From an uncultured Candidatus Saccharibacteria bacterium (GTDB lineage: Bacteria; Patescibacteriota; Minisyncoccia; Phycocordibacterales; WO2-35-19), in contig CAYTTP010000003.1 of assembly GCA_964440955.1 (NCBI GenBank), forward strand, positions 1-56,332: a stretch of 56,332 bases of DNA, given 5' to 3'. The notes under the pieces were generated by a model. That model did no database searches and was not told where the DNA came from. It saw nothing but the letters and a program-made list of their open reading frames with translations. Shown here piece after piece: positions 7,680 through 34,871 of this stretch; position 1 is the stretch's first letter, and the number at the start of each line of letters is the position of its first letter. Made by a program: the position numbers and the translations under genes.

Positions 7680-7949
7680 ATGAATGATTTTATTGATAAA
7701 GGTTATTCGATTATCACCAATACTCTCATCCCGCTTGGGTACTTTGTTTGCCTCTTTTACTTTGCTTGGGGTATTGCAAAGTACATCAAATCGATCGGTG
7801 ACGGCAAGGAGCAGGGCAGGCAAATAATGATTTGGGGAGTAGTTGGCCTTTTTGTAGTTACGAGTATTTGGGGTATTATTGAATTTATAAAGCTCGAAGT
7901 TGGCTTGCCTTTCGATAATTCAGAGCTCGATGCAAAAGTTTATAGGTAA
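7680..7949 (+). CDS. pilin-like small membrane protein, short form
   Basis: 89 aa. Motif: YFAWGIAKYIKSIGDGKEQGRQIMIWGVVGLFVVTSIWGII. Confidence 0.6.
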   Translation: MNDFIDKGYSIITNTLIPLGYFVCLFYFAWGIAKYIKSIGDGKEQGRQIMIWGVVGLFVVTSIWGIIEFIKLEVGLPFDNSELDAKVYR

Positions 7950-7961
7950 AAATATAAAAAC

Positions 7962-8318
7962 ATGAAAAATAATTTTAAAAAAATAATTCCGGTTTCCCTC
8001 TTCCTTTTACCAATTTTAACAAGCGCTCAACTTGATGGGACAGACAAATTTTTTGGGAAAGCAAAGTCAATCGTAAGTGATACTTTGGTACCAGGAGCAT
8101 TTTTTGTAGCCCTCGTGTATTTCTTCTACGGTATCGCCAAATACATCAAGTCTGAAGGTGCCGGCAAAGCCGAAGGCAAAATGATCATGGTGTGGGGAGT
8201 GGTCGCTTTGTTTGTTGCTTCGTCAGTTTGGGGTTTGGTCACTCTTTTACAAAAGGAAATAGGGATAAACAGTAACCCTGGCAGTATGAAAATACCAACT
8301 TTAGAAACATATAGATAA
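7962..8318 (+). CDS. pilin-like small membrane protein, short form with signal peptide
   Basis: 118 aa. Motif: YFFYGIAKYIKSEGAGKAEGKMIMVWGVVALFVASSVWGLV. Confidence 0.6.
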   Translation: MKNNFKKIIPVSLFLLPILTSAQLDGTDKFFGKAKSIVSDTLVPGAFFVALVYFFYGIAKYIKSEGAGKAEGKMIMVWGVVALFVASSVWGLVTLLQKEIGINSNPGSMKIPTLETYR

Positions 8319-19845: not shown

Positions 19846-21324
19846 TTAGGCTTTGACCATTCTTACTGCTTCGATTCGGTCACCGGGGACGAGCTCTATT
19901 TTTGATTCGATCATGAGCCCACACTCGTCACCCTCTTTGGCTCGTCCGGATTTTATTTTTTGGACTTGAAGTTCGCGGATCATGCCATGGCCTATCACGG
20001 CATCGCGGCGAAGTATTTTGAGCTCCTCGCCTTGACCGATTTCACCCGACTCGACCCTCGCTCCAACCACTTGCTTGTCCTTATTTTTGCTAAAAACCTT
20101 GAGGATCTTGCCTGAACCAGTGATACTCTCAATCATCTCAATTGGAGTCGCTTCCTTCATTTTTTCATGGACGTATTCTACAAGCTCGTAGATTATCTTG
20201 AATATTTTGACCTCAACTTTGTCGCGCAAAGCCAGAGTTTCGGCGTTTTTGTCGACAATGACACTAAAGCCAATGACCGGACTCTTTTTTATATTGGCAG
20301 TTTTGATGTCGCTTTCGCTTATAGCTCCTACTCCGCGGCTCACTATTTTGGCAAATATTTTTTCATTACCAAGCTTTTTAAATTCATGTTCGATCGCGTC
20401 TAGCGAACCAAAGGTGTCAGCCTTTATGACAATAGGGAAAGCGATGCCGTTTTCGTTTGTATCGATTGTTTTTGATTCATTTATTTTGTCGTTTATTTGG
20501 GAATATTCGAGGGCTTCATCTTTGGTTTTGAAAGCTTGAAACTGGCCGCCCACCTTTGGTGTCCCACTCCAACCGACGATTTTGACAGGGCTTGAAAATG
20601 TAGCTGATTCGATCGCTACACCTGCGCTATTTTCGATATTTCTCACTGACACATAAGCTCCGGGGGCACCCAAAAATAATCCAGATCGGATACTACCGTC
20701 TTTAATGACCAAGGTTGCGCGCACTCCCTGCTTTGGGTTCAAGTCGCATTCAACAACAAAACCACTACCTAAAGTGTCACTTTCACCTACAAGTTCTTCA
20801 AGGTCGGCCTGCAGAGTGATGAGTTCCAAAAGTTCGCTTACACCTTCACCGGTCTTGCTTGATATTGGGGCGCAAGGCACTGTCCCGCCCCAACCTTCAA
20901 CAAAGACCTCTCTTTCTGCAAGATCTTGCTTTACTTTGTCGATATTGGCTCCGGGTTTGTCTATTTTACTTATTGCCACAATGAAAGGGAGAGAATTTTT
21001 TTTGATATAGTTTAATGCTTCGACGGTCTGTGGTTTGACACCGTCTTCAGCGGAAACAATGAGGATGGCGATGTCGGCTACTCTAGAACCGCGTTCGCGA
21101 ATAGCATAAAAAGCTTCATGGCCCGGTGTATCCAAAAAAGTGATCGTCTTTTTTTCTCCTGCTATTTCAGTAGTGGCTTCATAAGCGGAGACGTGTTGGG
21201 TTATCCCACCACTTTCTTTGTCGGTAGTATTTTCTTTTCGTATATAGTCGAGCAGAGTTGATTTGCCATGGTCAATATGGCCCATCACCACGACGACTGG
21301 CGGTCGGGCTGTTTTTTTATTCAT
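19846..21324 (-). CDS. infB: translation initiation factor IF-2 (short form lacking the long N-terminal region)
   Basis: 492 aa. G1 GHIDHGKSTLLD, G3 DTPGHEAF, G4 SKID, and C-terminal beta-barrel domains. Confidence 0.95.
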   Translation of the reverse strand: MNKKTARPPVVVVMGHIDHGKSTLLDYIRKENTTDKESGGITQHVSAYEATTEIAGEKKTITFLDTPGHEAFYAIRERGSRVADIAILIVSAEDGVKPQTVEALNYIKKNSLPFIVAISKIDKPGANIDKVKQDLAEREVFVEGWGGTVPCAPISSKTGEGVSELLELITLQADLEELVGESDTLGSGFVVECDLNPKQGVRATLVIKDGSIRSGLFLGAPGAYVSVRNIENSAGVAIESATFSSPVKIVGWSGTPKVGGQFQAFKTKDEALEYSQINDKINESKTIDTNENGIAFPIVIKADTFGSLDAIEHEFKKLGNEKIFAKIVSRGVGAISESDIKTANIKKSPVIGFSVIVDKNAETLALRDKVEVKIFKIIYELVEYVHEKMKEATPIEMIESITGSGKILKVFSKNKDKQVVGARVESGEIGQGEELKILRRDAVIGHGMIRELQVQKIKSGRAKEGDECGLMIESKIELVPGDRIEAVRMVKA

Positions 21325-21862
21325 TTATTTTTTGTCTGTCTTGAGCTTCTTGTCCTTCAAATCCTTCATGACTACTTTGAGGTTTTCGAACGGATCGGAG
21401 AGCTTTTTCTATTGTTTGCTCCTCTTCTTCACCGAGCTCGTACTCGCTTTTCCATGAAGTGAGTGGTTTAGCGAATACGTTTGTTCTCTCGCGTGTGTGC
21501 ATGCTTGTTATCACGACACCATCGCCTTTTTCGTCCGCAAATACCGATACAAAACTCTGGTTGCCACCCACCCCCTCACCCTGGAATGGATTGTAGCGAA
21601 GCGTTTTTGCGCTCATTAGTTTTTGCTGTATTCTCCGGTCGAGATCTTTCATGTAATCTATTGCTTCGTCCCTAAACTTGAGCAGGTCATGAACAGTTGC
21701 ACCATGTCTTTGAAGCAGTGACTCTACGTCTGGCATTTTTGCCGAAGCGAAAATTTTGCTGACTCTTCGATGCATCCAAATCGCTAAAGCTAGGGCGACT
21801 AGGGAAGTCGTTAGGCAAAGAGCAATGGCGATATGTATGCCGTATACATATATGAAAGACAT
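21317..21862 (-). CDS. DUF4446-like membrane-anchored protein
   Basis: N-terminal TM helix, then LRYNPFQGEGVGGNQSFVSVFADEKGDGVVITSMHTRERTNVFAKP, which is typical of DUF4446. Confidence 0.6.
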   Translation of the reverse strand: MSFIYVYGIHIAIALCLTTSLVALALAIWMHRRVSKIFASAKMPDVESLLQRHGATVHDLLKFRDEAIDYMKDLDRRIQQKLMSAKTLRYNPFQGEGVGGNQSFVSVFADEKGDGVVITSMHTRERTNVFAKPLTSWKSEYELGEEEEQTIEKALRSVRKPQSSHEGFEGQEAQDRQKINE

Positions 21863-21928
21863 GCGCGAAATTGTACACTATTTTTATATAAAAAGGAATA
21901 TTTTGGCTGTTATGATAGTATTTGTCTC

Positions 21929-23134
21929 ATGAATTGGTTTAAAAAGAATAAAAGGATATTTCTTGACCATGCTTCGACGACCCCAGTTGAACCAGCGGTT
22001 TTGAAACAAATGAGTACTATCCAAAAAGATTTTTGGGCAAACCCATCCTCTATACATGACGATGGTTTGAAGGCAAAAGAGCTTCTTCGTGAGGCAAGGT
22101 CTAGTATTGCACTTTCATTGGGGGTGCAGGCGTCAGAAGTGTACTTTACTTCGGGTGGGACCGAGGCTTTGAACATAGCTATTTTGGGTACGGCTTTGGC
22201 TTATAGGAGAGTTTATGATAAAGAGCCACACATCATCACTTCAACTATCGAGCATCCGGCTGTCCTCGAACCGATAAAGCATTTGGCACGAAATGGTCTT
22301 GCTAAGATTTCCTACATTCAACCAAATGAGGAGGGGATAGTTTCCCCCGAATCTATCAAAAAAGAACTTTGCGACGAAACGGCACTTGTCGTTATTCAAC
22401 ACGCGAACAATGAGATAGGGGTCATTCAGCCAGTCCAAACTATTGGGCGAATGATCGAACAATTTAGAGGAGAAAAAAAGGGACACCATTCAAAATTTTC
22501 CCACCAGCCTCATCCATATTTTTTGGTCGATGCAAGTCAGAGTATTTTGTATGAAAATGTTTCGCCAAACCGTTTGCATGCCGACATCATAGTTTTTGAT
22601 GGTATAAAAATGTATGGTCCGCGTGGAGTGGGAGCTATGGTCGCAAGACGTTTTTCCCTTATTGACCCCATCATCTTTGGTGGTGGTCAAGAGGAAGGGC
22701 TTCGCCCTGGTACCGAAAATGTGGCTTCGGCTTGCGGGCTTGCCGAAGCTCTGAAAATCGCTGATAAAATAAGAAAGTCCGAATCAGAAAGGTTGGCAAA
22801 AATCCGAGACTATTTTTTTGGTCGTATAGAAAAAGAATTTCCAAAAATTTCTATAAACGGCTCAAAGGAGTTTCGTTTGCCAAACAATATAAATATTTGC
22901 ATCAAGGATGAGAAGGTTGACTCTGAGTTTTTGGTTATCAAGCTCGACACTTTGGGTTTTTCTGCTTCTTCTGCTTCCGCCTGCCACACTCTTTCTTTGG
23001 AAAATTCTTCGTATGTTGTTTCGGCGCTCGGTGACCTTGATTGTGCTTCTCGCTCGCTCCGCTTCACTCTTGGTCGCGATACCAAAAGGCAGGACATAGA
23101 CAGGTTGATCGATGCTCTCAAAAAGATCTTATAA
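21929..23134 (+). CDS. cysteine desulfurase (class V aminotransferase, NifS/IscS-like)
   Basis: IFLDHASTTPV start, FTSGGTEALN, HANNEIG, the FDGIKMYGPRG lysine region, and the active-site loop SASSASACH. Start chosen at the internal ATG 21929. Confidence 0.85.
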   Translation: MNWFKKNKRIFLDHASTTPVEPAVLKQMSTIQKDFWANPSSIHDDGLKAKELLREARSSIALSLGVQASEVYFTSGGTEALNIAILGTALAYRRVYDKEPHIITSTIEHPAVLEPIKHLARNGLAKISYIQPNEEGIVSPESIKKELCDETALVVIQHANNEIGVIQPVQTIGRMIEQFRGEKKGHHSKFSHQPHPYFLVDASQSILYENVSPNRLHADIIVFDGIKMYGPRGVGAMVARRFSLIDPIIFGGGQEEGLRPGTENVASACGLAEALKIADKIRKSESERLAKIRDYFFGRIEKEFPKISINGSKEFRLPNNINICIKDEKVDSEFLVIKLDTLGFSASSASACHTLSLENSSYVVSALGDLDCASRSLRFTLGRDTKRQDIDRLIDALKKIL

Positions 23135-23242
23135 TTTTTATCCCCAAATTGTTTTTAAATTTTATTTTTGGTATCATTATTTTAAATGTTTTCGTTTTTT
23201 AAAGTTTTCAATATTTAATTTTCAATCTTCAATTTTAAAAAC

Positions 23243-24067
23243 ATGGAAGATCTAACCAAACATCAACTTATTCTCCTCACCATCTTGATAACCTTCGTGA
23301 CTTCGATCGCGACGGGTATTATTACCTTTACTCTTTTGTCCGAAGCTCCAGTCGAGGTGACTCAAACCATCAACCGAGTGGTAGAAAAGACGATTGAACA
23401 GGTGGTGCCAGTTGAAACAGGTAAGACCGAAACAAAAGTCACCACTGTTGTCGTGAGTGAGGAGGATAGGGTACTTGAGTCAATATCCAAAAATGAAAAA
23501 TCTATCGTCCGTCTCAAAACGCGCGGCAATGACGGTACTGAAGTTTTTTCGGGTCTTGGTATTGTGGTGAATACAAGTGGTGTAGTCGTATCTGACTTAA
23601 GAAGTTATAATCCAGGTTTCGCTTATACTATTATATTGAGCAACGGCAAAACTTACTCATCTCAAAAAGTTTTTGCCGATACTGAAAACGGTCTTGTCTT
23701 TATTACACCTAGTATTCAAAAAAATGACCCTGGTCCGCACTCGTTTTCACCGGCCTCGTTTGGCGACTCTTCGAAGCTCAATATTGGTCAAACCGTTATC
23801 GCTGTCTCTGGTCGCGAGTCAAATGCGGTATCAATCGGGCGTATCCGCCAGCTTATAAAGTCGGCCGATGGCAAAAAAATTCTCGATATATTCTCTGATA
23901 TTGCGCTCGGTCGTAGTACCCCAGGTAGCCCTATCCTCAATCTTTCGGGTGAAATAGTCGGTATGGAAAAGGTGGTCAGTGAAGGCGATGATACTTACTC
24001 TTACACCCCAATTCAGGACATCACAGCTACCTTCAAAAATGCCCTTGCCGAGCTCGCCAAAAACTAA
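23243..24067 (+). CDS. membrane-anchored trypsin-like serine protease (HtrA-like core, no PDZ)
   Basis: 274 aa with an N-terminal TM helix. SGLGIVVNTSGVVVS and GRSTPGSPILNLSGEIVGM resemble the S1C protease core. Confidence 0.55.
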   Translation: MEDLTKHQLILLTILITFVTSIATGIITFTLLSEAPVEVTQTINRVVEKTIEQVVPVETGKTETKVTTVVVSEEDRVLESISKNEKSIVRLKTRGNDGTEVFSGLGIVVNTSGVVVSDLRSYNPGFAYTIILSNGKTYSSQKVFADTENGLVFITPSIQKNDPGPHSFSPASFGDSSKLNIGQTVIAVSGRESNAVSIGRIRQLIKSADGKKILDIFSDIALGRSTPGSPILNLSGEIVGMEKVVSEGDDTYSYTPIQDITATFKNALAELAKN

Positions 24068-24117
24068 GACCAAACTCAAGTGGCTTGACCTCTGATTTTA
24101 TGCTATAATGGCTATAA

Positions 24118-26832
24118 ATGACGCCATTTAACCATTTTACTACCAAAGCCAAAGAAGCCATAAAACGTGCTCACGAGCTCGTTATTGAACGAGGCCAAAA
24201 CCACGTCGGACCACTCCAGCTTTTGACTGCTCTCATCTTGCAGGAGGAAAGTATGGTTGCCTCTATTTTGGATCGCCTGGAGGTTGATACCATCCTTCTC
24301 ACCGATTCTCTTTTTGATGCGATGGAGGGCGCGATTGTTGGCAATACTTCTACTCCTTCATATCAAATTTATTTGACGCCAGAGCTTGCGCATATTATCG
24401 AGCATTCTTCTAAGGTGGCTTCTTCGATGAACGATGAATTTGTCTCGACCGAGCACCTCTTTATTGCTTGTCTAGAAGTGCCAAGTCAGGCGCGCGACAT
24501 TCTTTCCAAATTCAAAATCGAAAAAGACAAAGTGATGTTTTTGATCCAAGAAATAAAAGAAGGGAGAGTCAACGAACCAAAACAGCCGCAAAAAAACAAA
24601 ACTCTGGTCAAATATACTCGCTCGCTCACCAAGCTTGCCAAAGAAAACAAGCTTGACCCGGTGATTGGTCGCGATGAGGAAATTTCCCGAATCATTCAAA
24701 TACTTTCACGTAGGACAAAAAACAATCCAATCCTCATCGGTGAGGCTGGGGTAGGCAAAACTGCTATCGCTGAAGGTCTTGCTATGCGCATGGCAAACGG
24801 TAATGTGCCTGAATCATTGAAGGACAAAGAAATAGTTTCCCTAGATTTGGGGTTGCTTGTCGCGGGTACCAAGTTTCGTGGTGAGTTTGAAGAACGTCTA
24901 AAAAATATAATCAAAGACATTGAAAAGTCAGAGGGCAAGATTATTTTGTTTATCGATGAAATCCACACTATCGTTGGTGCCGGTAGTGCTGAAGGTTCGC
25001 TCGATGCCTCCAATATGCTGAAGCCTCCACTTGCAAGAGGTGAGCTAAGGGCGATTGGCGCGACCACTATCAAGGAATATCAAAAACATATCGAAAAGGA
25101 CCCGGCCCTTACTCGTCGCTTTCAACCGGTGTATGTTTCCGAACCTTCAGTTGATGATGCGATCACTATTTTGCGTGGACTCAAAGAAAAGTACGAGCTC
25201 TATCACGGTGTCCATATAACTGATGATGCTATCAAGTCGGCTGTCAATCTTTCTTCTCGATATATTGCTGACAGGTTTTTGCCGGACAAAGCAGTTGACC
25301 TCATCGACGAAGCTGCTTCTCACCTCAAAATATCGTTGGAAAATATGCCACCTATTTTGCAAGAAACTAATTCTAAAATAGTAAAGCTTGAAATTGAGCG
25401 CGAAGCTTTGAAAAAAGAAGCAGAAAACAAAAATAGCAAAGCCAAAGCCCGCCTCCAAGAAATTGAAAAAGAGGTAGCTGATCTTAAGGAAAAGACCGGA
25501 GAGATAGATTTGAAATGGAAAAACGAAAAGGAGACTGTTGGTGAAATAAAGCGAATCAAAAAAGAGCTTGAATCTGCTCGCCTTGAAGCTGAGGCTGCTG
25601 AAGCACGGGTGGATTTGGGTCGAGCCGCTGAAGTACGCTACGGTAAGATACCAAGCTTAGAAAAGGACCTCGATACCAACGTCAAAAAACTCAAAAAACT
25701 CCAAAGCTCTCGTCGTATTTTGAAAGAGGAAATAACTGAAAATGATATTGCCAATATTGTAGCCAAATGGACGGGCATCCCAGTTTCTAGAATGCTTGAA
25801 GAAGAGGCTGAAAAACTTTCTCGAATGGAAGAAAATTTGAAAAAGAGAATCGTCGGTCAAGATGAAGCCGTCCAAAAAATTTCTGACACGATCAAACGCT
25901 CTCGTGCTGGTATTTCTGATCCAAATCGTCCGATCGGCTCCTTCATCTTTTTGGGTCCAACCGGAGTGGGAAAGACAGAGCTTACCAAAGCACTTGCCGA
26001 ATTTATGTTCAACGACGAGAAGGCGCTCATCCGTGTTGATATGTCCGAATTTATGGAAAAACACTCGGTTTCCAAGCTTATTGGCGCACCTCCTGGCTAT
26101 GTTGGTTTTGACGAAGGGGGTGGTATCACAGAGATGGTGCGTCACCGGCCGTATTCGATAGTTTTGTTCGACGAAATCGAGAAGGCTCACCCTGAAGTGT
26201 TTAACGTGCTCCTTCAAGTGCTCGACAATGGCCGACTTACCGACTCAAAGGGTCGCACTGTCAACTTCAAAAACACGATCATTATTATGACTTCAAATAT
26301 TGGTGCTCAATATATCGATAAGATGGAAAGGATGGGCTTTGGTGAAAATAGGAGTGATGAAAAAAATTATAATGATGTTAAAGACAGGGTGCTTGAAGCA
26401 ACCAAAGACTATTTCCGTCCGGAGTTTTTGAACCGCATTGACGACATTATTGTCTTTGATGTTTTGCCGATTGAAGCGATTCGCGATATCGTCCGCATTC
26501 AAGTTGATTTGGTCAAGGAGCGATTGGCTCAAAAAGAAATTTCTCTCGAGCTTTCTTCTGAAGCTTATGAATATCTTGCGAAAGAAGGTTACAATCCACA
26601 GTATGGTGCTCGCCCACTCAAGCGTGTAATCCAAAATAAGATTTTAAACAAAGTTGCTTCTCTCATTATAAGCAAGGGGATCATGAAAGGTGGCACAGTT
26701 TCTATTTCTGTCAAAAAATCAACCAATGCTTCAGGACCTGATGAACTTGTCTTTGATATCAAAAAAGGCCGTCGGGGTTCAATCATCGAAGCCTCTCTTC
26801 TCGACGACACCCCAAAAGAAACCGTGGTGTAA
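24118..26832 (+). CDS. clpB: ATP-dependent chaperone ClpB
   Basis: 904 aa with a Clp N domain. NBD1 Walker A GEAGVGKT and Walker B ILFIDEIH, a long coiled-coil M domain, NBD2 GPTGVGKT and [10 protein letters not shown]. Confidence 0.96.
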
Positions 26833-26841
26833 AAATGGAAA

Positions 26842-26864
26842 GGCGTTCACTAAAAGTGAACGTC
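26842..26864 (+). terminator. hairpin after the clpB stop (weak terminator; no T-run)
   Basis: GGCGTTCAC-TAAAA-GTGAACGTC. Confidence 0.4.
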
Positions 26865-26877
26865 GATATAAAGTACT

Positions 26878-26883
26878 TATAAT
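26878..26883 (+). promoter_or_regulatory. possible -10 box for the RT leader RNA
   Basis: A perfect TATAAT. The -35 region is weak (AGTGAA at 17-nt spacing). Confidence 0.35.
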
Positions 26884-26889
26884 TCCCTA

Positions 26890-27135
26890 GAACACCACTT
26901 ATGAGCACGTGAGAGAAAGATGAACGAACATTGGTGGTGTCCTAAGCCCGAAAGTGGCGAGGGTAAGGCCGCTTGAGATCCAAGTCGGACTACCAGCATA
27001 CCCCCAAGATCTTCTGGTTTACTCTAAAGAGAGTATTCCGCTCCATCGTGTGACGATGAAGGCTGTTTTTCGACGTCTCTCACAGGTCCAAGCCGGACTG
27101 TTTTGATTGTAGCATGTTTTTATATATAAGTTTAG
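26890..27135 (+). ncRNA. candidate structured noncoding leader RNA of the RT module
   Basis: About 250 nt with no credible ORF. Stems: ACACCAC/GTGGTGT (26892-26898/26934-26940), GTGAGAGA/TCTCTCAC (26909-26916/27076-27083), CATCGT-GTG-ACGATG (27044-27058). A 13-nt direct repeat lies at 26979 and 27087. Confidence 0.45.
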
Positions 27136-28056
27136 TTGTATAAATCAAATAAAATAGGTTATCCTCTGTTCGGAGGCCTTGTGGATAAACCTGCATTTGA
27201 AAGGTATTTTCTGAGAGATGTAAATCATCAGAGTGGTAGGGTGAAAAATCGAGAAATTTTTGCTCCAAACGATTCAATGCGTGAGGTGCAAGAGGGTATA
27301 GTGGCCAAACTTCGGTCTTTGGAGATTGAGATGCCGAGCGCGACTGGTGGTGTCAGGAATGGTTCGCCAGTCAATAACGTCCTCAAACATTGGTCACCTT
27401 ACAATAAGAGTGCGAGATACTTTTTTCTGCTTGATCTAGCATCTGCTTACAAGAATGTCCTTGTGAGCGATATGTTAGTTGAACTGAAGAGGGTGTGGCC
27501 ACATGATTGCGACGAGAAGTTTGTTCAGAGTGTTATGAATCACTGCTTGATACCGGGTGAGGGTTTGGCAACTGGAGGTAACGCCTCGCCAGATATTTTC
27601 AACCTATGTATGGAGATTTCGATTGATCGGCAAATACGCTCGTATGCCGAATACAACGATCTCACCTACACTCGTTATCTCGATGATCTGACTTTCTCAT
27701 CTCCTTTTCCGATAGGTAAGAGGAAGAGGAATACGATCATCAAGATTCTCACTGAAGCTGGTTGTGTCGTTAACCATCAAAAGTCTCAGGTGCTTGATAT
27801 CGAAAAGCATCATGTGGAAATAAATGGTATCGGCTTGCGTCGTAGCGGACACTTCTTCATGCCTAGTCGGGTCTTGGATGAGTTAAAAAACTTGCTCTAT
27901 CGGGCAACTAGAGGGGAGTCCATTTCCGATTCTCTCATTCAAGGCAAGATGGGCGGGTTCATCTATCTTAGGAGAAAAGGCTTGCTTGCTCTGACCGAGA
28001 GAGAACGTAATATCCTTCGACGGTACGAGCAATATCTGCCGTTGCGCCGGGGTTAA
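27136..28056 (+). CDS. reverse transcriptase, minimal stand-alone type (retron/defence-RT-like)
   Basis: RT motifs: NREIFAPNDSMREVQ, SATGGVRNGSPVNNVLKH, FFLLDLASAY, GLATGGNASPDIFNL, YTRYLDDLTFSS (27676-27687), VNHQKS, EINGIGL. The likely true start is GTG 27181, behind GGAGG at 27172-27176. Confidence 0.88.
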   Translation: MYKSNKIGYPLFGGLVDKPAFERYFLRDVNHQSGRVKNREIFAPNDSMREVQEGIVAKLRSLEIEMPSATGGVRNGSPVNNVLKHWSPYNKSARYFFLLDLASAYKNVLVSDMLVELKRVWPHDCDEKFVQSVMNHCLIPGEGLATGGNASPDIFNLCMEISIDRQIRSYAEYNDLTYTRYLDDLTFSSPFPIGKRKRNTIIKILTEAGCVVNHQKSQVLDIEKHHVEINGIGLRRSGHFFMPSRVLDELKNLLYRATRGESISDSLIQGKMGGFIYLRRKGLLALTERERNILRRYEQYLPLRRG

Positions 28057-28130
28057 ATCCTCGGCGCTCTGTTTTTAATAGTGTGTAAAAATTTTGAAAT
28101 ATCTGGTATTGTGTGCGGAGGAGGTGAACT

Positions 28131-28535
28131 ATGTCCAGTATCTCGAATAGAGAAATGACATTTGTTGTAGCTGTTCTGTACTCTTTGCCCGAAAAGTGGC
28201 GAGGGGTTGGCCGTTCTTTCTCGTTTGAGGATGTGCAAGATAGGCTACATCTTGCTTGGCATAGACTCTATCAAGAAGGATTGCTTGGGGAGTTTGGTGA
28301 ATCGTTTTCTTTTGACGCTCTTTGTGGCTCAGACAGTCTTGGGCAAGCACTTCGCACAGCTGCGGTAGATGGGCTCATAAGGATCGGTGGCTCTGATATG
28401 GCTTATCATGTTGATGTCCTGAAGCCTGACCAAATTGATCGTATGTTAGAGTCGTGCGTAATAGACCGAAGTGCCGTGACTACTGCTGTCAAACGTCTCG
28501 AAGCTATTCTCGAAGAGAAACCCTCCCCGGCTTAG
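28131..28535 (+). CDS. hypothetical 134-aa protein, RT-associated
   Basis: Strong RBS GGAGGAGG 7 nt upstream of the ATG. Same strand as the RT and 74 nt after it. No motif recognised. Confidence 0.6.
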   Translation: MSSISNREMTFVVAVLYSLPEKWRGVGRSFSFEDVQDRLHLAWHRLYQEGLLGEFGESFSFDALCGSDSLGQALRTAAVDGLIRIGGSDMAYHVDVLKPDQIDRMLESCVIDRSAVTTAVKRLEAILEEKPSPA

Positions 28536-28553
28536 AGTCGGGGAGTTTGGTTT
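28523..28553 (+). terminator. hairpin plus T-rich tract closing the RT module
   Basis: CTCCCCG-(9 nt including the stop)-CGGGGAG, then TTTGGTTTG. Confidence 0.55.
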
Positions 28554-28597
28554 GTAATAAACTAAAAATCTGTTAAAATCTCAAAAGTAATAATATT

Positions 28598-28681
28598 GCG
28601 TCGGTGGTAGAGTGGTCAATTACAACAGACTGTAAATCTGTCGCCCATTGGGCTACGCAGGTTCGAATCCTGCCCGGCGCA
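28598..28681 (+). tRNA. tRNA-Tyr(GUA), class II, no CCA encoded
   Basis: Acceptor GCGTCGG/CCGGCGC, anticodon arm CAGAC-TGTAAAT-CTG, long variable arm CGCCCATTGGGC, T arm GCAGG-TTCGAAT-CCTGC, A73. Confidence 0.88.
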
Positions 28682-28872
28682 CAAAATAAAACCCAGCTTC
28701 TGCTGGTGTTTTATTTTGTGCGCCGGAAGTGCAGCTTTGTGTAGCAAAGCGTAGCACGGATTCGAAAGGCGGAAGAAATTTTTTAGCAAAAAAATTTCTG
28801 AGCCGGGGTCGCGAGCGATTTTGCTTGACTGAAGCAAAATCGACTTGTGACCGAATCCTGCCCGGCGCACCA
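28664..28872 (+). repeat. tRNA-3'-end-associated structured element, type A (tRNA-Tyr copy), with 19-nt direct repeats
   Basis: CGAATCCTGCCCGGCGCAC lies at 28664-28682 and 28852-28870; the second copy reads through to ...ACCA. Internal antisense segments are GTGCGCCGG (28718-28726) and GCACGGATTCG (28754-28764). The 3' module GGTCGCGAG-hairpin-CTTGTGACC is at 28807-28852. Confidence 0.8.
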
Positions 28873-29031
28873 CTTCGCTCTGTTATCACAGAGCTTCGCG
28901 GTGCAAGCACAAAAAGATCCCCAGAGATGGTGGTATTTTTGTTATAATTAAGCGAAGTGGTCCCGCGGAGCTAAACCCAGCAAAGCTTTAGCGAAGTTGG
29001 GTAGCGGAGTGGGGCACAAATAAAATTATAT

Positions 29032-29232
29032 GAAAAAGACGCCTTGAGAGGCGTCTGGATGAGGGTGGGGAGTCAGGCTGCCGCAGGACGCGGATTATCC
29101 TATTCTCATAGGACAGACCGCTATTTGCCTATCTCTACCCACCCTCAAGCGGTGAGGATGAAGAGAGCTTCACGCAGGGCGCTTGCGCTGGCACCTGTGT
29201 GGGGTGGGTTGCTCAATCTCCATCCTCACGCA
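29032..29232 (-). ncRNA. unclassified GC-rich structured sRNA (about 200 nt)
   Basis: Consensus promoter upstream and an intrinsic terminator (AGACGCC-loop-GGCGTCT plus U5) at the 3' end. Two long irregular helices: GUGAGGAUGGAGA..GAGC/GCUC..UCUUCAUCCUCAC and GAGGGUGGG.../...CCCACCCUC, with internal GNRA-type loops. Confidence 0.65.
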
Positions 29233-29238
29233 TTTACT

Positions 29239-29267
29239 ATTATAGCAAATGTTTGATTGCCTGTCAA
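29239..29267 (-). promoter_or_regulatory. consensus sigma70-type promoter for the sRNA
   Basis: On the minus strand: TTGACA (29267-29262), a 17-nt spacer, then TATAAT (29244-29239). Confidence 0.7.
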
Positions 29268-29285
29268 TAAATTTCAGTGGAAAGA

Positions 29286-30584
29286 TTATTTACCAATCAG
29301 GGCTTCACTCCATTTGTAAATATTGCCCGCACCCATAAGGACGATGCAGAGAGGTTTATCTGATTTTATCGTTTCTATTTCTCGTTTTAGTTCCCCAGCA
29401 TTTTCTACTGTATTAGCTTCAGTATGTTTATTGACTGCTTCAGCAAGGGTTTGGTTCGTCACTACACCTGTGGCATTTTCCTTATTTATATATATAGGCG
29501 CAATGAAAACTTTGTCGGCAATTTTTAGCGATTCGACAAAATCGTCAAAAAACATTTTGGTTCGGAGTTCTTGATGTGGTTCGAAAACACAGACAAGGGT
29601 GTGTTCTGGGTATTCCCCCTTTAGAGCTGAAAGGGAAGCGGTGATTTCGGTTGGGTGGTGAGCATAATCCGTATAAAAAATATTTCCATCTTTTTCGTCT
29701 ACCTTTTCGAGTCTTCTCCATGTGCCTCTAAAATCTTTTAGAGCATTTTCTGATTTTTCTTTTGGGATGTTTAAACTTTCAGTTGCCGTAATAGATGCTT
29801 TGGCGTCTAAGATATTGTGCTTCCCTGGTACTAAGAGTTTTATATTCAAATCATTTTTTGTGTAATCCAAAACTTTAGCTTGAACATTTTTCAAAACTGG
29901 TTCGATGTTTGGGTGGTTGGGGTCGGTCACGATAAACCCATCTCGACCAACTTTTTGGGCTATTTCTTCAAAAGCATTTTGAATGTCGGCAAGGTCTTTG
30001 TAATAGTCGAGGTGATCAGCTTCAATATTGGTGATCACTAAAATAGAAGGGGAGAGATTTAAAAATGATCTTTTATATTCACATGCCTCGACGACCAGAT
30101 ATTTTGATTTGCCAGCGACGAAGTTTGTGTATTCTTGGGCCTTTGAATCAATCATTTTCGAACCAACAACGATAGTCGGGTCGAAGCCTGCTTCTTGGAG
30201 AATGTGGCCGATCATGGCAGTGGTCGTCGTTTTGCCGTGAGTGCCAGCTATCGCGATTGTATACATTTGCTTTGAAAGTTCTCCTAAAGCTTGAGGATAG
30301 GTGATACAAGTAAGACCTCGTTTGCGAGCCTCGATAAGCTCTGGATTTTCCTCTGTTATCGCTACGGTATAGATGACAATCTCGACATTATTACCAATAT
30401 TTTCGGGCCTTTGACCGATCATAATTTCAACTCCTATTTTTTGGAGTGCCTCGGTTATTTCTGAAGCAGAATTATCCGAGCCGGCTACCTTTTTGCCTTG
30501 CAAGACAAGCATTTTGGCGATGGCTGAAATCCCAATCCCGCCAATGCCTATAAAGTGATAGTTGTTTTTTGAAAAGATATCCAC
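29286..30584 (-). CDS. murC: UDP-N-acetylmuramate--L-alanine ligase
   Basis: 432 aa. HFIGIGGIGISAIA, the GTHGKTTTT P-loop, and Mur ligase middle and C-terminal domains. Confidence 0.92.
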   Translation of the reverse strand: MDIFSKNNYHFIGIGGIGISAIAKMLVLQGKKVAGSDNSASEITEALQKIGVEIMIGQRPENIGNNVEIVIYTVAITEENPELIEARKRGLTCITYPQALGELSKQMYTIAIAGTHGKTTTTAMIGHILQEAGFDPTIVVGSKMIDSKAQEYTNFVAGKSKYLVVEACEYKRSFLNLSPSILVITNIEADHLDYYKDLADIQNAFEEIAQKVGRDGFIVTDPNHPNIEPVLKNVQAKVLDYTKNDLNIKLLVPGKHNILDAKASITATESLNIPKEKSENALKDFRGTWRRLEKVDEKDGNIFYTDYAHHPTEITASLSALKGEYPEHTLVCVFEPHQELRTKMFFDDFVESLKIADKVFIAPIYINKENATGVVTNQTLAEAVNKHTEANTVENAGELKREIETIKSDKPLCIVLMGAGNIYKWSEALIGK

Positions 30585-30628
30585 TGCACAATTATTACAT
30601 ATGTGATATAAAAATTGTAGGAGGTCAC

Positions 30629-30856
30629 ATGTTTGAACCTGATACCTGTGTCCGGCTTAAGGAGCGTGGTTCGGACGAGTTTTCTACAAGACTTTTGGAT
30701 GGTTGGAGAAAGGCGTATGCTCATCTTGAACCGTTTTTCGTCCATCAACATCCCGATTCGGAACATGTTTCAATCAGGGGTGCAGATGGGCAGATTATCC
30801 ACTTTGGTAGTGTGGAATGTCCATTACTCCATATCTCGTTTATCGAGGTAGTCTGA
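30629..30856 (+). CDS. hypothetical small protein (75 aa)
   Basis: An ATG 4 nt after AGGAGG (30619-30624). It sits alone on the + strand between murC and murB, with a GC-rich hairpin downstream. Confidence 0.4.
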   Translation: MFEPDTCVRLKERGSDEFSTRLLDGWRKAYAHLEPFFVHQHPDSEHVSIRGADGQIIHFGSVECPLLHISFIEVV

Positions 30857-30902
30857 TGGTCTCTTTCAAAAGACTGGCGGTCATCTAGGTGGCCGCCAAT
30901 TT

Positions 30903-31952
30903 TTATTCCACCAGATTTACTTCGCGCTCGAGGGTAATGCCGAATTTTTTATATACGCTATCGCTGATATATTTTTGAGCTTTGAGTAAGTCTTTAAATG
31001 AAGCCTTGTTTGGATTGGTGAGGACTAGGGCGTTATTTTTGTAAATAACAATATTTGAAATCGTTTTACCTTTGAGGCCTAAACTATCAATCAAAAAACC
31101 TGCCGGCACCTTGGTACCCTCTTCTGATTCAAAAAGTGGCAGGGTGGGGAATTTTTGTTTTAATTTTTTGGCTGACAATTTTGAGATAAACGGGTTTTTA
31201 AAAAACGAGCCACAGTTTGGGATTATTTTTGGGTCGGGTAGTTTGTGAGCACGTATTTTTATAATAGCTTTTCGTATTTGTTTTAAATTTGGAGACGTGA
31301 TGCCTTGCTCCGCAAAATAGTTTTGAACATCTTTATAATTTGGTATTTTTACATTATTGATATGATCCCCCTTCGCTTTGTTTCGGCGTGGCAAGTTGTG
31401 AGTAGGGTGTAATTTGAAAGTGACATAAGTGATAACCCATCTTTTTGGGTATTTTTTAAAAATACTATTTCGATAACTAAATTGGCAGTCCTTGTTTTTA
31501 AGGGTGACCCATTTTTTTGTTTTTGTATCATAAGCTTCGACCAAAACAATTGTATCTTTTACTTCGCTTCCATAGGCACCAATATTTTGAATAGGGGAAG
31601 CACCAACCGTACCAGGGATAGCGGAGAGTGCTTCAATACCAGAAAGATTTTTGGAAACGGTGAATTTCACGAACTTATCCCAATTTTCTCCAGCTCCTAC
31701 TCTGATCATTGTTGATTTTGAGTTTGTCTGCCTAACCTCCACTCCTCGTATTTTTATAAGGCCGATTATATAAGGAAGTGAGGTATCGGAAAATATACTA
31801 TTGCTTCCCCCTCCTAAAATGATAGTTTTGTTTTTGTCCGATCTTTCTACAAATCTTTCTATATCACTCTTTGTTCTTAAAATAGATAGAGACAGAGCTT
31901 TGCCCCCGATCCGCATAGTACTCAAATGACGCGTTTCCACAGTTTTTTTCAT
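30903..31952 (-). CDS. murB: UDP-N-acetylenolpyruvoylglucosamine reductase
   Basis: 349 aa. FAD-binding PCMH-type N-terminus (ILGGGSNSIF) and a MurB C-terminal domain. Confidence 0.9.
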   Translation of the reverse strand: MKKTVETRHLSTMRIGGKALSLSILRTKSDIERFVERSDKNKTIILGGGSNSIFSDTSLPYIIGLIKIRGVEVRQTNSKSTMIRVGAGENWDKFVKFTVSKNLSGIEALSAIPGTVGASPIQNIGAYGSEVKDTIVLVEAYDTKTKKWVTLKNKDCQFSYRNSIFKKYPKRWVITYVTFKLHPTHNLPRRNKAKGDHINNVKIPNYKDVQNYFAEQGITSPNLKQIRKAIIKIRAHKLPDPKIIPNCGSFFKNPFISKLSAKKLKQKFPTLPLFESEEGTKVPAGFLIDSLGLKGKTISNIVIYKNNALVLTNPNKASFKDLLKAQKYISDSVYKKFGITLEREVNLVE

Positions 31953-31986
31953 ATAAAAATTATATCACATATGATATATTACCAAT

Positions 31987-33495
31987 ATGAGCAATCAACA
32001 ACGCATAGGGGCACTTATCAAAAGTCTTAGGGAAAGGAGAGGTCTCACTCAGCAGGAATTTGCAAAACACCTTAAGACTTCACAGAGTGCGGTAGCGCGA
32101 ATGGAAAGTGGTAATCAAAATTTTACTTCTAAAGAAATAGAGAAAATAAGTGAGGCATTAGATCGCAAGATAATAGCTCTCGATGAAAGTATCGATTTTA
32201 AGATTGAGGGTGGGTATCGTCTTAAAGGTTCTGTTGATACAAACCCATCTAAAAATGGTGCGTTGGGTTTGCTTTGTGCTTCTCTTTTAAACAAATCAAA
32301 GACTACACTTCATGGTATTCCAAAGATTGAGGAAGTTTTTCGTTTGATCGAGGTTTTTAAGAGTATTGGCATTTCTGTCTCTTGGGTTGGTCCTCAATCA
32401 TTAGAAATAATTCCTCCAAAAAAATTTAGTATAAAAAATATAAATAATAAATCTGCTGGCAAAATACGCTCAGTCCTCATGATGATTGGTGCCTTGATTC
32501 ATCACGAAAAGGAGTTTCGCATACCACATGCTGGTGGTTGCAAAATGGGCGAGCGAACAATAGAAGCTCATCGGCACGGACTCAACTCACTCGGTGTTTC
32601 TATTATGACAGGTGAAGATTCTTATAAAATTTCTAGTGGTAAATTGTCCGCTACTCCTATTGTCATGTATGAATCAAGTGATACCGCGACAGAAAACATT
32701 TTGATAGCTGCCTCACTTATACCTGGCAAAACAGTCATTGAATTTGCTCCGCCAAATTACCAAGTACAGGAAGTTTGTTTTTTCTTGGAGACTTGCGGAG
32801 TAAAGATTGAAGGTATCGGTACAACCACGCTTACTGTACATGGTGTGTCTCAAATAGATAGACCGATCGAGTATCACAATAGCGAAGACCCGATTGAATC
32901 GATGATGTTTATCTCGGCTGGTATCACTACTAATTCGACGCTTACTATAAAGAGATGCCCCTATGATTTTTTGAAATTGGAAATGCTCAAACTAAAGAAG
33001 ATGGGGTTGAAGTACAAAATGAGTAAGCAATATTTTTCGCACAACGGTCGAACAAAACTTGTTGATATAACGGTCTACCCATCAAAGCTAGTGGCTCCAA
33101 GTGATAAGATACATGCTCAACCATACCCAGGTATAAACTCTGACAACCTTCCGTTTTTTGTACCGATTGCTACTCAAGCAGAAGGGCGCACTCTCATCCA
33201 TGATTGGATGTGGGAAAATAGAGCTATCTATTTTACTGAAATCAATAAACTTGGAGGTTCAGTAGCGCTCGCTGATCCACATAGGGTATTTGTAAACGGA
33301 CCAACCAAACTTTCAGGTACTCAAGTAGTTTGTCCACCGGCACTACGTCCAGCAATGATTATTTTGATTGCAATGCTTTCAGCTAAGGGGACATCGATCC
33401 TTCGAAATGTATACTCGATTTATCGTGGTTATGAGGAAATAGCAGAGCGTCTCAACGCTCTCGGTGCTAAAATACAAGTAATAAAAGGAATGTAA
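31987..33495 (+). CDS. murA: XRE-type HTH domain fused to UDP-N-acetylglucosamine 1-carboxyvinyltransferase
   Basis: N-terminal region of about 65 aa: LRERRGLTQQEFAKHLKTSQSAVARMESG (HTH_3-like). The remainder has the MurA/EPSP-synthase fold with PSKNGAL and the catalytic-Cys loop PHAGGCKMGERT. Confidence 0.85.
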   Translation: MSNQQRIGALIKSLRERRGLTQQEFAKHLKTSQSAVARMESGNQNFTSKEIEKISEALDRKIIALDESIDFKIEGGYRLKGSVDTNPSKNGALGLLCASLLNKSKTTLHGIPKIEEVFRLIEVFKSIGISVSWVGPQSLEIIPPKKFSIKNINNKSAGKIRSVLMMIGALIHHEKEFRIPHAGGCKMGERTIEAHRHGLNSLGVSIMTGEDSYKISSGKLSATPIVMYESSDTATENILIAASLIPGKTVIEFAPPNYQVQEVCFFLETCGVKIEGIGTTTLTVHGVSQIDRPIEYHNSEDPIESMMFISAGITTNSTLTIKRCPYDFLKLEMLKLKKMGLKYKMSKQYFSHNGRTKLVDITVYPSKLVAPSDKIHAQPYPGINSDNLPFFVPIATQAEGRTLIHDWMWENRAIYFTEINKLGGSVALADPHRVFVNGPTKLSGTQVVCPPALRPAMIILIAMLSAKGTSILRNVYSIYRGYEEIAERLNALGAKIQVIKGM

Positions 33496-34871
33496 TGGAT
33501 ATTAAAGGTAAAAAAGTGTTATTGATGGGATTGGGGATTTTAGGTGGCGGAGTAGCGACTGCGCGATTTTTAGTAGAGCAGGGAGCTATACTCACTGTGA
33601 CTGATATGAAAGATGCAAATTATCTTGCGTCATCACTTGAAAAACTCTCTGATCTAAAAGAGAAAATAAAGTGGGTGCTTGGCGAACACAGGGAGGAAGA
33701 TTTTTTAGAGTGCGACATACTTGTCATCAACCCAGACGTACCAGCCTCAAACCCGTTTGTCGAAAAGGCGAGACAGGCCGGCAAACCAATCGAAAATGAA
33801 TTGACTTTGTTTTTCAAATTTTCTCCATGCAAAAGCATTATCGCGATCACTGGTACTCGTGGCAAGACAACAACGACCAATTGGACCGGACACATTTTGA
33901 AAGAAGCGGGGATTGATGCACGGGTGATCGGTAATGATCCGGAGAGACCATTTCTTTCGGAAATCAAAAAATGCACCAAAGATACAGTCGCGGTTATTGA
34001 AACTCCTTCTTTTCAACTTGAAATATTTGGTGAGTCTGGTTGCGCTCCTCACATCGCAGTCATCACCAACCTCTATCAAGACCATTTGAGTCGCCACAAA
34101 ACAATGGAAGAATATGCGCTTGCTAAGGCCAATATTTTTAAAAATCAGAAACCTGGTGACTATTTATTGCTCGATGATTATTTTGATGAATGGACTCAGT
34201 TTTTTATCTCTAAAAGTTCGGCGACGGTCCATCATTATGCTGATTTTTCTATCATCGGTTTTGACGCTCGTGGTTTTGCCGAGAAGTATGGTCGTCATAA
34301 TTTGAAGAACCTGCGCGCTGCTATTTCCGCATGTCATTTTTTTGGATTGACTCTTGAACAAATACTTCCGGCTATTGAGACATTGCCATTCATTCACTGG
34401 AGGCAGGAGCTTGTGTACGAGAGCGATAAACTAAAAATTTATAACGACACTGCAGCCACTTCCCCTGAAGCTTCGATGGTAGCTATAGAGCGCTTTCATA
34501 CTGAAAAGCAAAAGTCGGCTATCCCCTCGCTTGGACGTTTTTTCCCTGATCTTAATAACATGATCCTTATTTGTGGCGGAACTGATCGCGAGCTTGAGTT
34601 TAAAGGTTGGGCGCAAACAGTCAAAAAATATCTAAAACCAGAACAAGTAGTTTTTCTTTCTGGTAGTGCGACCGAAAAAATGAAAAAAGAACTGGAGTGG
34701 GAAAGTTATAATGAACACGACACGCTCGAGCAATGTTTTAAAAGCGCTCTTGACTTAGCTTCTAGGGGCAGGTCGGTGATCGTGTTCTCCCCTGGAGCAA
34801 AAAGTTTTGAAAAATTCAAAAATGAGTTTGATCGAGGCGAAAAGTTTAATGAACTCGTAAAGATGTTATAA
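33495..34871 (+). CDS. murD: UDP-N-acetylmuramoylalanine--D-glutamate ligase
   Basis: 458 aa. The GTRGKTTTT P-loop and Mur ligase domains. Start overlaps the murA stop (TAATG). Confidence 0.9.
   Translation: MDIKGKKVLLMGLGILGGGVATARFLVEQGAILTVTDMKDANYLASSLEKLSDLKEKIKWVLGEHREEDFLECDILVINPDVPASNPFVEKARQAGKPIENELTLFFKFSPCKSIIAITGTRGKTTTTNWTGHILKEAGIDARVIGNDPERPFLSEIKKCTKDTVAVIETPSFQLEIFGESGCAPHIAVITNLYQDHLSRHKTMEEYALAKANIFKNQKPGDYLLLDDYFDEWTQFFISKSSATVHHYADFSIIGFDARGFAEKYGRHNLKNLRAAISACHFFGLTLEQILPAIETLPFIHWRQELVYESDKLKIYNDTAATSPEASMVAIERFHTEKQKSAIPSLGRFFPDLNNMILICGGTDRELEFKGWAQTVKKYLKPEQVVFLSGSATEKMKKELEWESYNEHDTLEQCFKSALDLASRGRSVIVFSPGAKSFEKFKNEFDRGEKFNELVKML

Follow-up and report, generated by a model that had tools for sequence, protein, structure and literature searches.

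A retron-type reverse transcriptase and its structured RNA form a two-part module in a Saccharibacteria genome and its Patescibacteria relatives

In the current view, retrons are toxin-antitoxin defence systems with three parts. They consist of an msr-msd noncoding RNA (ncRNA), a reverse transcriptase (RT) and an effector, with types I-XIII described (Mestre et al. 2020, PMC7736814), and about one-quarter of retron RTs have no detected accessory gene (review, PMC8632793). The defence system DRT2 (UG2) has an RT and a pseudoknotted ncRNA, and makes rolling-circle cDNA that encodes Neo (PMC11100668, PMC12039810). DRT9 (UG28) and DRT10 (UG17) make ncRNA-templated, protein-primed homopolymer or tandem-repeat DNA (PMC12483538, PMC12489045, 10.1101/2025.10.16.682844). 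About 80% of the RTs of the candidate phyla radiation (CPR) belong to diversity-generating retroelements (DGRs; review, PMC8632793), and we found no paper on retron-type RTs or their RNA in Patescibacteria/CPR. Here we analyze an RT module from an uncultured Candidatus Saccharibacteria bacterium, carried on a 56,332-nucleotide stretch of contig CAYTTP010000003.1 (the whole stretch is called the window). A reading of the window made from its sequence alone had seen a plus-strand leader RNA, an RT and a 134-aa partner protein. The object of interest is instead a divergent RT/ncRNA pair that belongs to a CPR-wide retron-like family.

The RT gene and its ribosome-binding site are placed as follows.

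27181-28056, plus strand: RT gene, 291 aa, GTG start, with NVLKH, SP in motif 4, YLDD and INGIGL.
27172-27176, plus strand: GGAGG, ribosome-binding site of the RT gene, read from the sequence.

The identification of the open reading frame (ORF) at 27136-28056 as an RT was borne out by Pfam RVT_1 (E 1.1e-14). The GTG start proposed at 27181 agrees with the N-termini of 22 aligned homologues and with the 291-aa product on record (P0001); YLDD lies at nt 27676-27687 as had been read, and the 291 residues hold RVT_1 alone, with no fused domain. The best 25 PADLOC profile hidden Markov model (HMM) matches of the window RT were retron RT models plus one CRISPR-associated RT model, with E-values of 1.7e-23 for II-A, 3e-21 for VI and about 1e-20 for I-B, III-A and Ec107-like. 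All 23 aligned family members matched every PADLOC retron RT model with similar strength (best 5e-32). Among NCBIfam models retron_St85_RT gave 1e-21, compared with 6e-5 for Drt3a, 5e-4 for Drt2 and 6e-4 for the group II maturase, although at 77 bits against a cutoff of 235 the retron match is below threshold. The predicted fold agrees with this placement. The AlphaFold (AF2) model has a pLDDT of 92.4, and when it was compared with the PDB using Foldseek the 16 best matches were all retron RTs (E 7e-14 to 1.5e-11; they include I-A/Ec83, Eco7, Eco2/Ec67, Ec86, Ec78 and Eco8). The DRT2 RT came seventeenth (E 1.7e-11) and the GsI-IIC group II RT was also behind the retron RTs.

Two sequence signatures of retron RTs are NAXXH and the VTG of motif 7 (PMC7736814), and the window's NVLKH and INGIGL occupy the corresponding positions. 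In the family alignment N66 and H70 of the first motif are invariant (NVLRH in the family and NVLKH in the window, with V for A), as is G216 of motif 7, where the family consensus is ITGIGL versus INGIGL in the window. Motif 4 is SP (GGNASPDIFNL). The sequence-only reading could place the RT with neither retrons nor DRTs and, in keeping with this, the protein fits no described type of either. By its profile matches and modelled fold it is a retron-type RT that lies outside every described type.

Membership in two other RT classes is excluded. No TR/VR repeat of at least 35 nt, as expected of a DGR, was present in 21000-34000, and motif 4 is SP, not SQ. No Rfam intron match was obtained at E up to 10 in 26000-29500, and group II intron RNA was also absent from 11 representative RT loci by Rfam. 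Moreover, the group_II_RT_mat score was only 19 bits against a cutoff of 300, and neither a maturase (X) nor an endonuclease (En) domain is present.

About 70 protein relatives of the RT were found, with best identities of 31-52%, and scans of one genome per species plus the JGI metagenomes gave 103 RT loci, 81 of them with distinct RTs. Groundwater CPR communities, such as those at Hainich and Rifle, were the source of many loci. The titled records are nearly all Patescibacteria (Paceibacterota/Parcubacteria, Saccharibacteria, Berkelbacteria, Kerfeldbacteria and others), plus a few metagenome-assembled genomes (MAGs) labelled otherwise. The RT family is thus present across many CPR classes. 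A phage origin was considered and rejected, as IMG/VR yielded one distant relative only, at 23% identity. Some distant relatives have C-terminal extensions (P0025/L033 of 415 aa, and the 400-445-aa ORFs of L036, L037, L093 and L096), and in P0025 a zf-CHC2 primase zinc finger (PF01807) is fused to the RT.

Almost every RT locus has an ORF-free stretch of 300-500 nt beside the RT gene, and in 42 of the 94 sources searched a covariance model detects an RNA next to the RT; nearly all are Patescibacteria MAGs, with unrelated gene neighbourhoods. At about 25 loci the motif CCTCAGCG is followed 45-60 nt later by CCGCTGA. The 5' part of the family RNA consists of arm A, GAAAAACAGCC plus a TGAGG motif, the hairpins P_a and P_b, GGTTCGGG, and a pyrimidine tract with a variable hairpin; the 3' part is CCCGAACC, S5' (TCAGCGG), a linker, arm A' and S3' (CCGCTGA). 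Arm A followed by the AAAAACAG motif is found at the same position across the family. Compensatory changes were seen in 12 of the 14 pairs of P_a and P_b among 16 sequences. In an alignment of 37 sequences, 94.7% of cells were paired and 153 were double-change cells versus 42 in shuffles (0/500), with slid controls giving 42-53% paired; note that this alignment was fitted to the covariance model, a bias toward the structure. The A and A' arms form ungapped stems of 10-19 bp, the sequences of which are unlike from locus to locus, and the stem was better than all 40 shuffles in 18 of 41 RNA copies. Hairpin S flanks A' in most copies and, as A' lies inside the loop of S, the A/A' pairing is a pseudoknot. 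In L113 the arms of S are swapped and in its second RNA copy they are replaced outright, with complementarity kept in both cases. No Rfam 15 family matched the RNA in the window or in 11 representative loci. These RNAs are a new structured RNA family, absent from Rfam 15. Searches by nhmmer with the window leader gave no matches, and iterated nhmmer reached saturation at 29 leaders and never reached the window. The conservation and covariation sought for the leader were therefore found in a conserved, covarying RNA, one that lies on the minus strand in the window.

The RNA gene has four arrangements: upstream on the RT strand (the main group), downstream, in tandem copies, and inverted, the last in the window subgroup only. 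A downstream RNA begins 9-90 nt past the RT stop codon on the same strand at 10-11 loci (L074, L027, L088, L071, L084, L072, L025, L082, L065 and L078, plus L018 as a weaker second match). Coordinates of downstream copies are L074 1332-1455, L027 3133-3253, L088 1094-1216, L071 4958-5080, L084 4983-5083, L072 2216-2329, L025 1114-1229 and L082 5002-5129, and this subclade has conserved arms (A UGGGUUUGGGA and A' UCCCAAACCC). Two tandem copies precede a single RT in L017 (3393/3747), L016 (70/346), L067 (81/461), L005 (3362/3674) and L113 (162/382), and three do so in L011 (2778/3189/3526). Several loci have a terminator-like hairpin between RNA and RT. The persistence of RT-RNA linkage through these rearrangements and in unrelated neighbourhoods argues for a functional pair, and an RNA gene that can be upstream, downstream, duplicated or inverted, free as to both side and strand relative to the RT, points to action in trans and to separate transcription.

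In the window the RNA is transcribed from the minus strand. The sequence-only reading had the RNA as a structured plus-strand leader that ran from a TATAAT into the RT gene. A conserved structured RNA is indeed present there, but it has a gene of its own on the other strand and is not a 5' leader of the RT. Covariance model R1, built on the 5' half of the family RNA, matched the minus strand only, from 27061 to 27015, with 21 bits (E 6.6e-4) and with P_a and P_b in the family order, and the second-round model (R2) gave one match in the whole 56-kb window, from 27096 to 27002 on the minus strand. Minus-strand-only R1 matches were also obtained in the relatives L104 (E 0.005) and L109 (0.077) and in L110 (the same organism's contig), and on L104 the minus-strand R2 match was 33 bits (E 4e-5). 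A minus-strand alignment of the three subgroup members has 50 pairs, of which 96.6% are paired and seven compensatory, compared with 37-48% paired in slid controls. Thirteen cells that read G.U on the minus strand would turn into A.C if the plus strand were the RNA; among them is a U.G in P_a that all three sequences share. The plus-strand helices of the window and L104 were considered and, given the covariance matches and the G.U cells, are real pairings read on the wrong strand; a plus-strand single-sequence fold of 26880-27180 was no better than shuffles (z -1.07). The parts of the window RNA, in 5' to 3' order on the minus strand, are DRa, arm A, AAAAACAGCC, P_a, P_b, stem IV, DRb, stem III, S5', linker, A' and S3'.

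27106-27114, minus strand: extended -10-like box TGCTACAAT, 7 nt upstream of DRa, read from the sequence.
26886-27099, minus strand: ncRNA core, from the R1 and R2 matches, running leftward away from the RT; about 215 nt, or about 260 nt with its tail.
27084-27099, minus strand: DRa 5' hairpin (GUCC GGCUU GGAC), a direct-repeat copy; G-C changes to A-U in L104.
27076-27083, minus strand: arm A (GUGAGAGA), 5' half of the long-range closing stem, pairing with 26909-26916.
27041-27061, minus strand: P_a (CUUCAUCG ucaca CGAUGGAG), nearly identical to CTTCATCGTTCATACGATGGAG of L053; family covariation.
27020-27035, minus strand: P_b (UACUCU cuuu AGAGUA), by R1 match, subgroup pairing and family covariation.
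26993-27017, minus strand: stem IV (CCAG/CUGG), compensatory changes seen by eye, outside the 50-pair count.
26976-26991, minus strand: DRb (GUCC GACUU GGAU), a small hairpin, the internal direct-repeat copy.
26952-26972, minus strand: stem III hairpin, from the subgroup alignment.
26932-26944, minus strand: S5' (CUUAGGACACCAC), 5' arm of S, with G.U where the plus strand gives A.C.
26908-26916, minus strand: arm A' (UCUCUCACG), in the loop of S, pairing with arm A.
26886-26898, minus strand: S3' (GUGGUGUUCUAGG), 3' arm of hairpin S.
26844-26862, minus strand: terminator-like hairpin followed by the U-rich CCUUUCCAUU, facing the clpB end, from a consensus scan.

In the window CGUCGAAAAACAGCC lies between arm A and P_a, a 17-nt linker separates S5' from A', and stems III and IV stand in place of the msd-like stem P_L (GGTTCGGG/CCCGAACC) of other family RNAs. 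Equivalents of stem IV are CAGGC/GCCUG in L104 and CUCUG/CAGAG in L109. L104 (TGCTAGAGT) and L109 (TATACT) have -10-like boxes in the same place as TGCTACAAT, from which we infer a candidate ncRNA promoter, although the box is not in the consensus-scan list. The hairpin at 26844-26862 is probably the 3' end of the ncRNA, a terminator that it would have in common with clpB. The TATAAT at 26878-26883 is present, between this hairpin and S3', but with the RNA on the minus strand its proposed role as a leader promoter is left unsupported.

The sequence-only reading placed the module between clpB and tRNA-Tyr in a CPR-type genome, and this was confirmed: clpB lies upstream of the module and ends at 26832, tRNA-Tyr is at 28598-28682, and the 90%-identity cluster of the ClpB includes a protein named "Patescibacteria group bacterium". 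The 348-nt gap at 26833-27180 has no credible ORF, as had been stated. The ncRNA gene extends leftward between about 27099 and the hairpin at 26862-26844 and the RT gene rightward from 27181, so that the two appear to be divergent genes with a common AT-rich spacer (27100-27180). Because the RNA is on the opposite strand, it is not co-transcribed with the RT. Downstream of the RT, two further terminator-like hairpins were found.

28044-28067, plus strand: terminator-like hairpin over the RT stop codon, 9 pairs of which 8 are G-C, then TCTGTTTTTA; consensus scan.
28523-28545, plus strand: terminator-like hairpin at the end of the 134-aa ORF; consensus scan.

The first, which was absent from the earlier description, splits the RT gene from the 134-aa ORF. 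That ORF (28131-28535) has the GGAGGAGG ribosome-binding site and the terminator-like hairpin attributed to it, and no recognised motif: the protein had no Pfam, PADLOC or NCBIfam match. Its AF2 model (pLDDT 84) is mostly helical with one two-strand hairpin, and a fold search against the PDB gave nothing better than E 1.4, with a faint likeness to ORC winged-helix and DtxR proteins (E >1). In the co-occurrence test set beforehand, the 134-aa protein had zero tblastn matches in the 103 RT loci, its only homologues found (P0031-P0033) were on contigs without an adjacent RT, and the two closest RTs (P0002 and P0034, 51-52% identity) have RuvX directly downstream. The 134-aa ORF is therefore not a syntenic partner of the RT and, because it is not linked to RTs, the layout read earlier as ncRNA, RT and small partner is two-part, ncRNA and RT. 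A three-component model, in which a plus-strand leader from TATAAT 26878 and the RT act with the 134-aa protein, could appeal to the adjacency of the two genes on one strand, the strong ribosome-binding site of the 134-aa ORF, and the good conservation of the four 134-aa homologues together with a confident model that matches no known fold. It is largely refuted by the minus-strand RNA, the hairpin between the two genes and the missing co-occurrence, and we regard it as very improbable.

No other protein takes the place of the 134-aa ORF. In all-against-all clustering of neighbour ORFs from the 81 distinct loci, the largest cluster spanned six loci and was housekeeping or permease-like, and the ORFs just 3' of the RT were heterogeneous (GreA, SmpB, UvrB, DnaB, a sigma factor and others). 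Hence, the conserved unit holds no protein besides the RT. A LAGLIDADG-type ORF (a weak Pfam match; L104 24-1046, minus strand) adjoins the ncRNA in the contig of the closest relative. In L057 SmpB and tmRNA (5364-5717) follow the RT, and in L052 the RT-associated ncRNA is preceded, at a distance of about 110 nt, by RNase P RNA (3139-3531); in these two loci core genes for RNA and protein surround the module. A tRNA gene adjoins the module in about 7 of 60 loci, which by estimate rather than computation is what the density of tRNA genes in a genome of about 1 Mb gives, and thus an enrichment was rejected.

One explanation of this gene context is that the same RT-ncRNA particle has a cellular role in reduced CPR genomes, such as DNA repair, priming or nucleic-acid turnover, which would explain the missing effector and the housekeeping neighbours. 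The lack of a conserved neighbour, flanks that include clpB, RuvX, GreA, SmpB/tmRNA, UvrB, DnaB, LeuRS and RNase P RNA, the spread of the family across many CPR classes and its near absence from viral contigs are all in accord with such a role. However, CPR genomes are dense in housekeeping genes, so their presence says little, and two relatives keep the neighbourhood without the module. L117 has synteny of the aminotransferase, trypsin-like protease and ClpB genes plus tRNA-Tyr but lacks the RT, ncRNA and 134-aa genes, whereas in L108 a homologue of the 134-aa gene adjoins tRNA-Tyr and clpB, again with neither RT nor ncRNA. These relatives indicate that the module is accessory rather than core, and a cellular role seems to us quite unlikely.

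Note that the clpB/tRNA-Tyr region is rearranged among the relatives L108 and L117. The last 19 nt of tRNA-Tyr (CGAATCCTGCCCGGCGCAC, 28664-28682) are duplicated exactly 188 nt downstream (28852-28870), which looks like an att-type scar of an integrated or excised element. In L117 about 400 nt past clpB (7700-8100) are G+C-rich and ORF-poor with obvious hairpins, possibly another small RNA; the RT is absent there.

Compared with retrons, the module has much in common. Its RT of about 300 aa finds its best HMM and fold matches among retron RTs, and has an NAxxH-like motif (NVxxH here); its motif 7 reads I-T-G in the family consensus but I-N-G in the window. The ncRNA adjoins the RT. A long inverted repeat with covariation, in which A resembles a2 and A' resembles a1, joins the two ends of the RNA, and the 5' arm of this repeat has a G at its inner end or close by. 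Next come short conserved hairpins, two or three in number, and then a stem-loop that varies. In contrast to retrons, the module has neither an effector gene nor a fused effector domain, an extra hairpin S surrounds the 3' arm A' and so creates a pseudoknot, the RNA gene is not tied to one position (it may be upstream, downstream or in tandem), and the family is nearly confined to Patescibacteria. Two defining retron features, the third component and co-transcription, are lacking.

The reading that we favor, with about even confidence, is that of an effector-less retron-like RT-ncRNA module of a Patescibacteria-wide family that would make an msDNA-like cDNA, a step that we infer. The RT-ncRNA pairing, the strand of the RNA, its helices and the lack of a conserved protein partner are tool results. 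In the proposed mechanism the RT would bind the RNA in trans via P_a and P_b. The A/A' helix, clamped by S, would bring the 2'-OH of a G, at the inner end of arm A or up to two bases away, next to the template base that immediately precedes A' on its 5' side. Copying by the RT would then proceed through the linker, S5', stem III and the DRb region, giving a single-stranded DNA (ssDNA) of 75-105 nt with plus-strand sequence from 26917 onward, joined to RNA as in retron msDNA. As there is no effector gene, any phenotype would have to come from the RT-RNA-DNA particle itself or from an unlinked host factor. Phage defence would be the default guess, one without support from gene context.

Several findings weigh against a retron-like mechanism. 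All of its steps, including the transcript, the branch point and msDNA, are drawn by analogy with retrons. The RT scores far under every curated NCBIfam cutoff with no retron type preferred, the window RNA is on the opposite strand while canonical retrons co-transcribe msr-msd-ret, hairpin S and its pseudoknot are foreign to retrons, and there is no effector as required by retron toxin-antitoxin logic. No RNA match was obtained in 52 of the 94 sources, although some are short contigs and distant RTs may have diverged RNA. Of 22 copies, only 5 show a clear msd-like P_L (no more than 1 of 40 shuffles doing as well), or about 8 if read more loosely. In nearly every copy a G stands 0-2 nt from the inner end of arm A, which carries little weight given how rich in G the arms are. 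In the window RNA itself, A/A' has 9 bp and is no better than shuffles (z 0.3), its support being one compensatory pair versus L104 and the match to the family architecture, and stem III has one C.A mismatch on the minus strand that points the other way.

A different outcome would be expected if the system were DRT-like, with the pseudoknotted ncRNA serving the RT as scaffold and template for an effector DNA and no branched msDNA. The product could then be concatemeric or repetitive DNA, or else a homopolymer rich in purines and made off a pyrimidine tract, and protein or a 3'-OH could prime it. Like DRT2, the module has two components, an RT and a neighbouring pseudoknotted ncRNA, and no protein effector gene, and RT plus ncRNA only is likewise the layout of DRT9 and DRT10. 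The fold match to the DRT2 RT is good and barely behind those of the retron RTs. The U/C-rich tract in the P_L loop of most family RNAs could template purine-rich DNA of the DRT9/DRT10 kind. The profiles argue otherwise: HMMs prefer retron RTs over Drt2 and Drt3a by more than 15 orders of magnitude, which places the RT outside the UG/Abi lineage, the best 25 PADLOC matches include no DRT model, and Drt2 scores 19 bits against a cutoff of 390 and Drt3a 22 bits against 200. The RT has about 290 aa versus 425 residues in the matched PDB chain of DRT2, the DRT9 fold matches are weaker (E 7e-10 and worse), and the RNAs of the window subgroup lack a pyrimidine tract outside A'.

The direct repeat of the window bears on both readings. 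The long direct repeat described from sequence alone is 16 nt long, with copies at 26976 and 27084 (a spacing of 108 nt), and it is accompanied by several inverted repeats. The copies are at about 1223 and 1334 in L104 and at about 1 and 105 in L109, and the unit spacings in the subgroup are 108, 111 and 109 nt. DRa and DRb are alike within a genome but unlike between genomes (CCAAGYCGGACT in the window and L109, CCCAGACGGATTA in L104), and so appear to undergo concerted change. Such a co-evolving repeat could mediate template jumping in a DRT-like system. However, a Neo-like ORF or rolling-circle template between the repeats was excluded, as the open frames of the 108-, 111- and 109-nt units are missing or unlike, with none in common and thus no conserved stop-free concatemer frame, and leaders outside the window subgroup lack long direct repeats. 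On balance, we consider a DRT-like mechanism unlikely. Pairing of the repeat copies with each other or with a common third site was also tried, and a conserved partner was not found. In the retron-like mechanism one may speculate that RNase H removes the template and that DRb, in its DNA form, then pairs with DRa at the RNA 5' end, which would explain why the copies change together. No known system accounts for the repeat.

A retron-type RT with a cognate RNA, present in many CPR classes and without an effector, suggests either a DNA with a function of its own or an unlinked effector. To our knowledge, the known two-part RT-ncRNA systems (DRT2, DRT9 and DRT10) all belong to a different RT lineage. 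We put forward tentatively, as possible but on the whole doubtful, that the family is a lineage-wide effector-less offshoot of retrons in which a minimal RT and a free-standing pseudoknotted RNA acting in trans produce a small DNA, and in which this DNA is what carries out the function. It could serve as a decoy or guide, or as an oligonucleotide for repair or priming. The RT-RNA pair should be easy to test in reconstituted form and is possibly useful as a compact ssDNA-producing tool. If the DNA is indeed the product of an effector-less offshoot, the family would be a new functional class, distinct from the toxin-antitoxin retrons.

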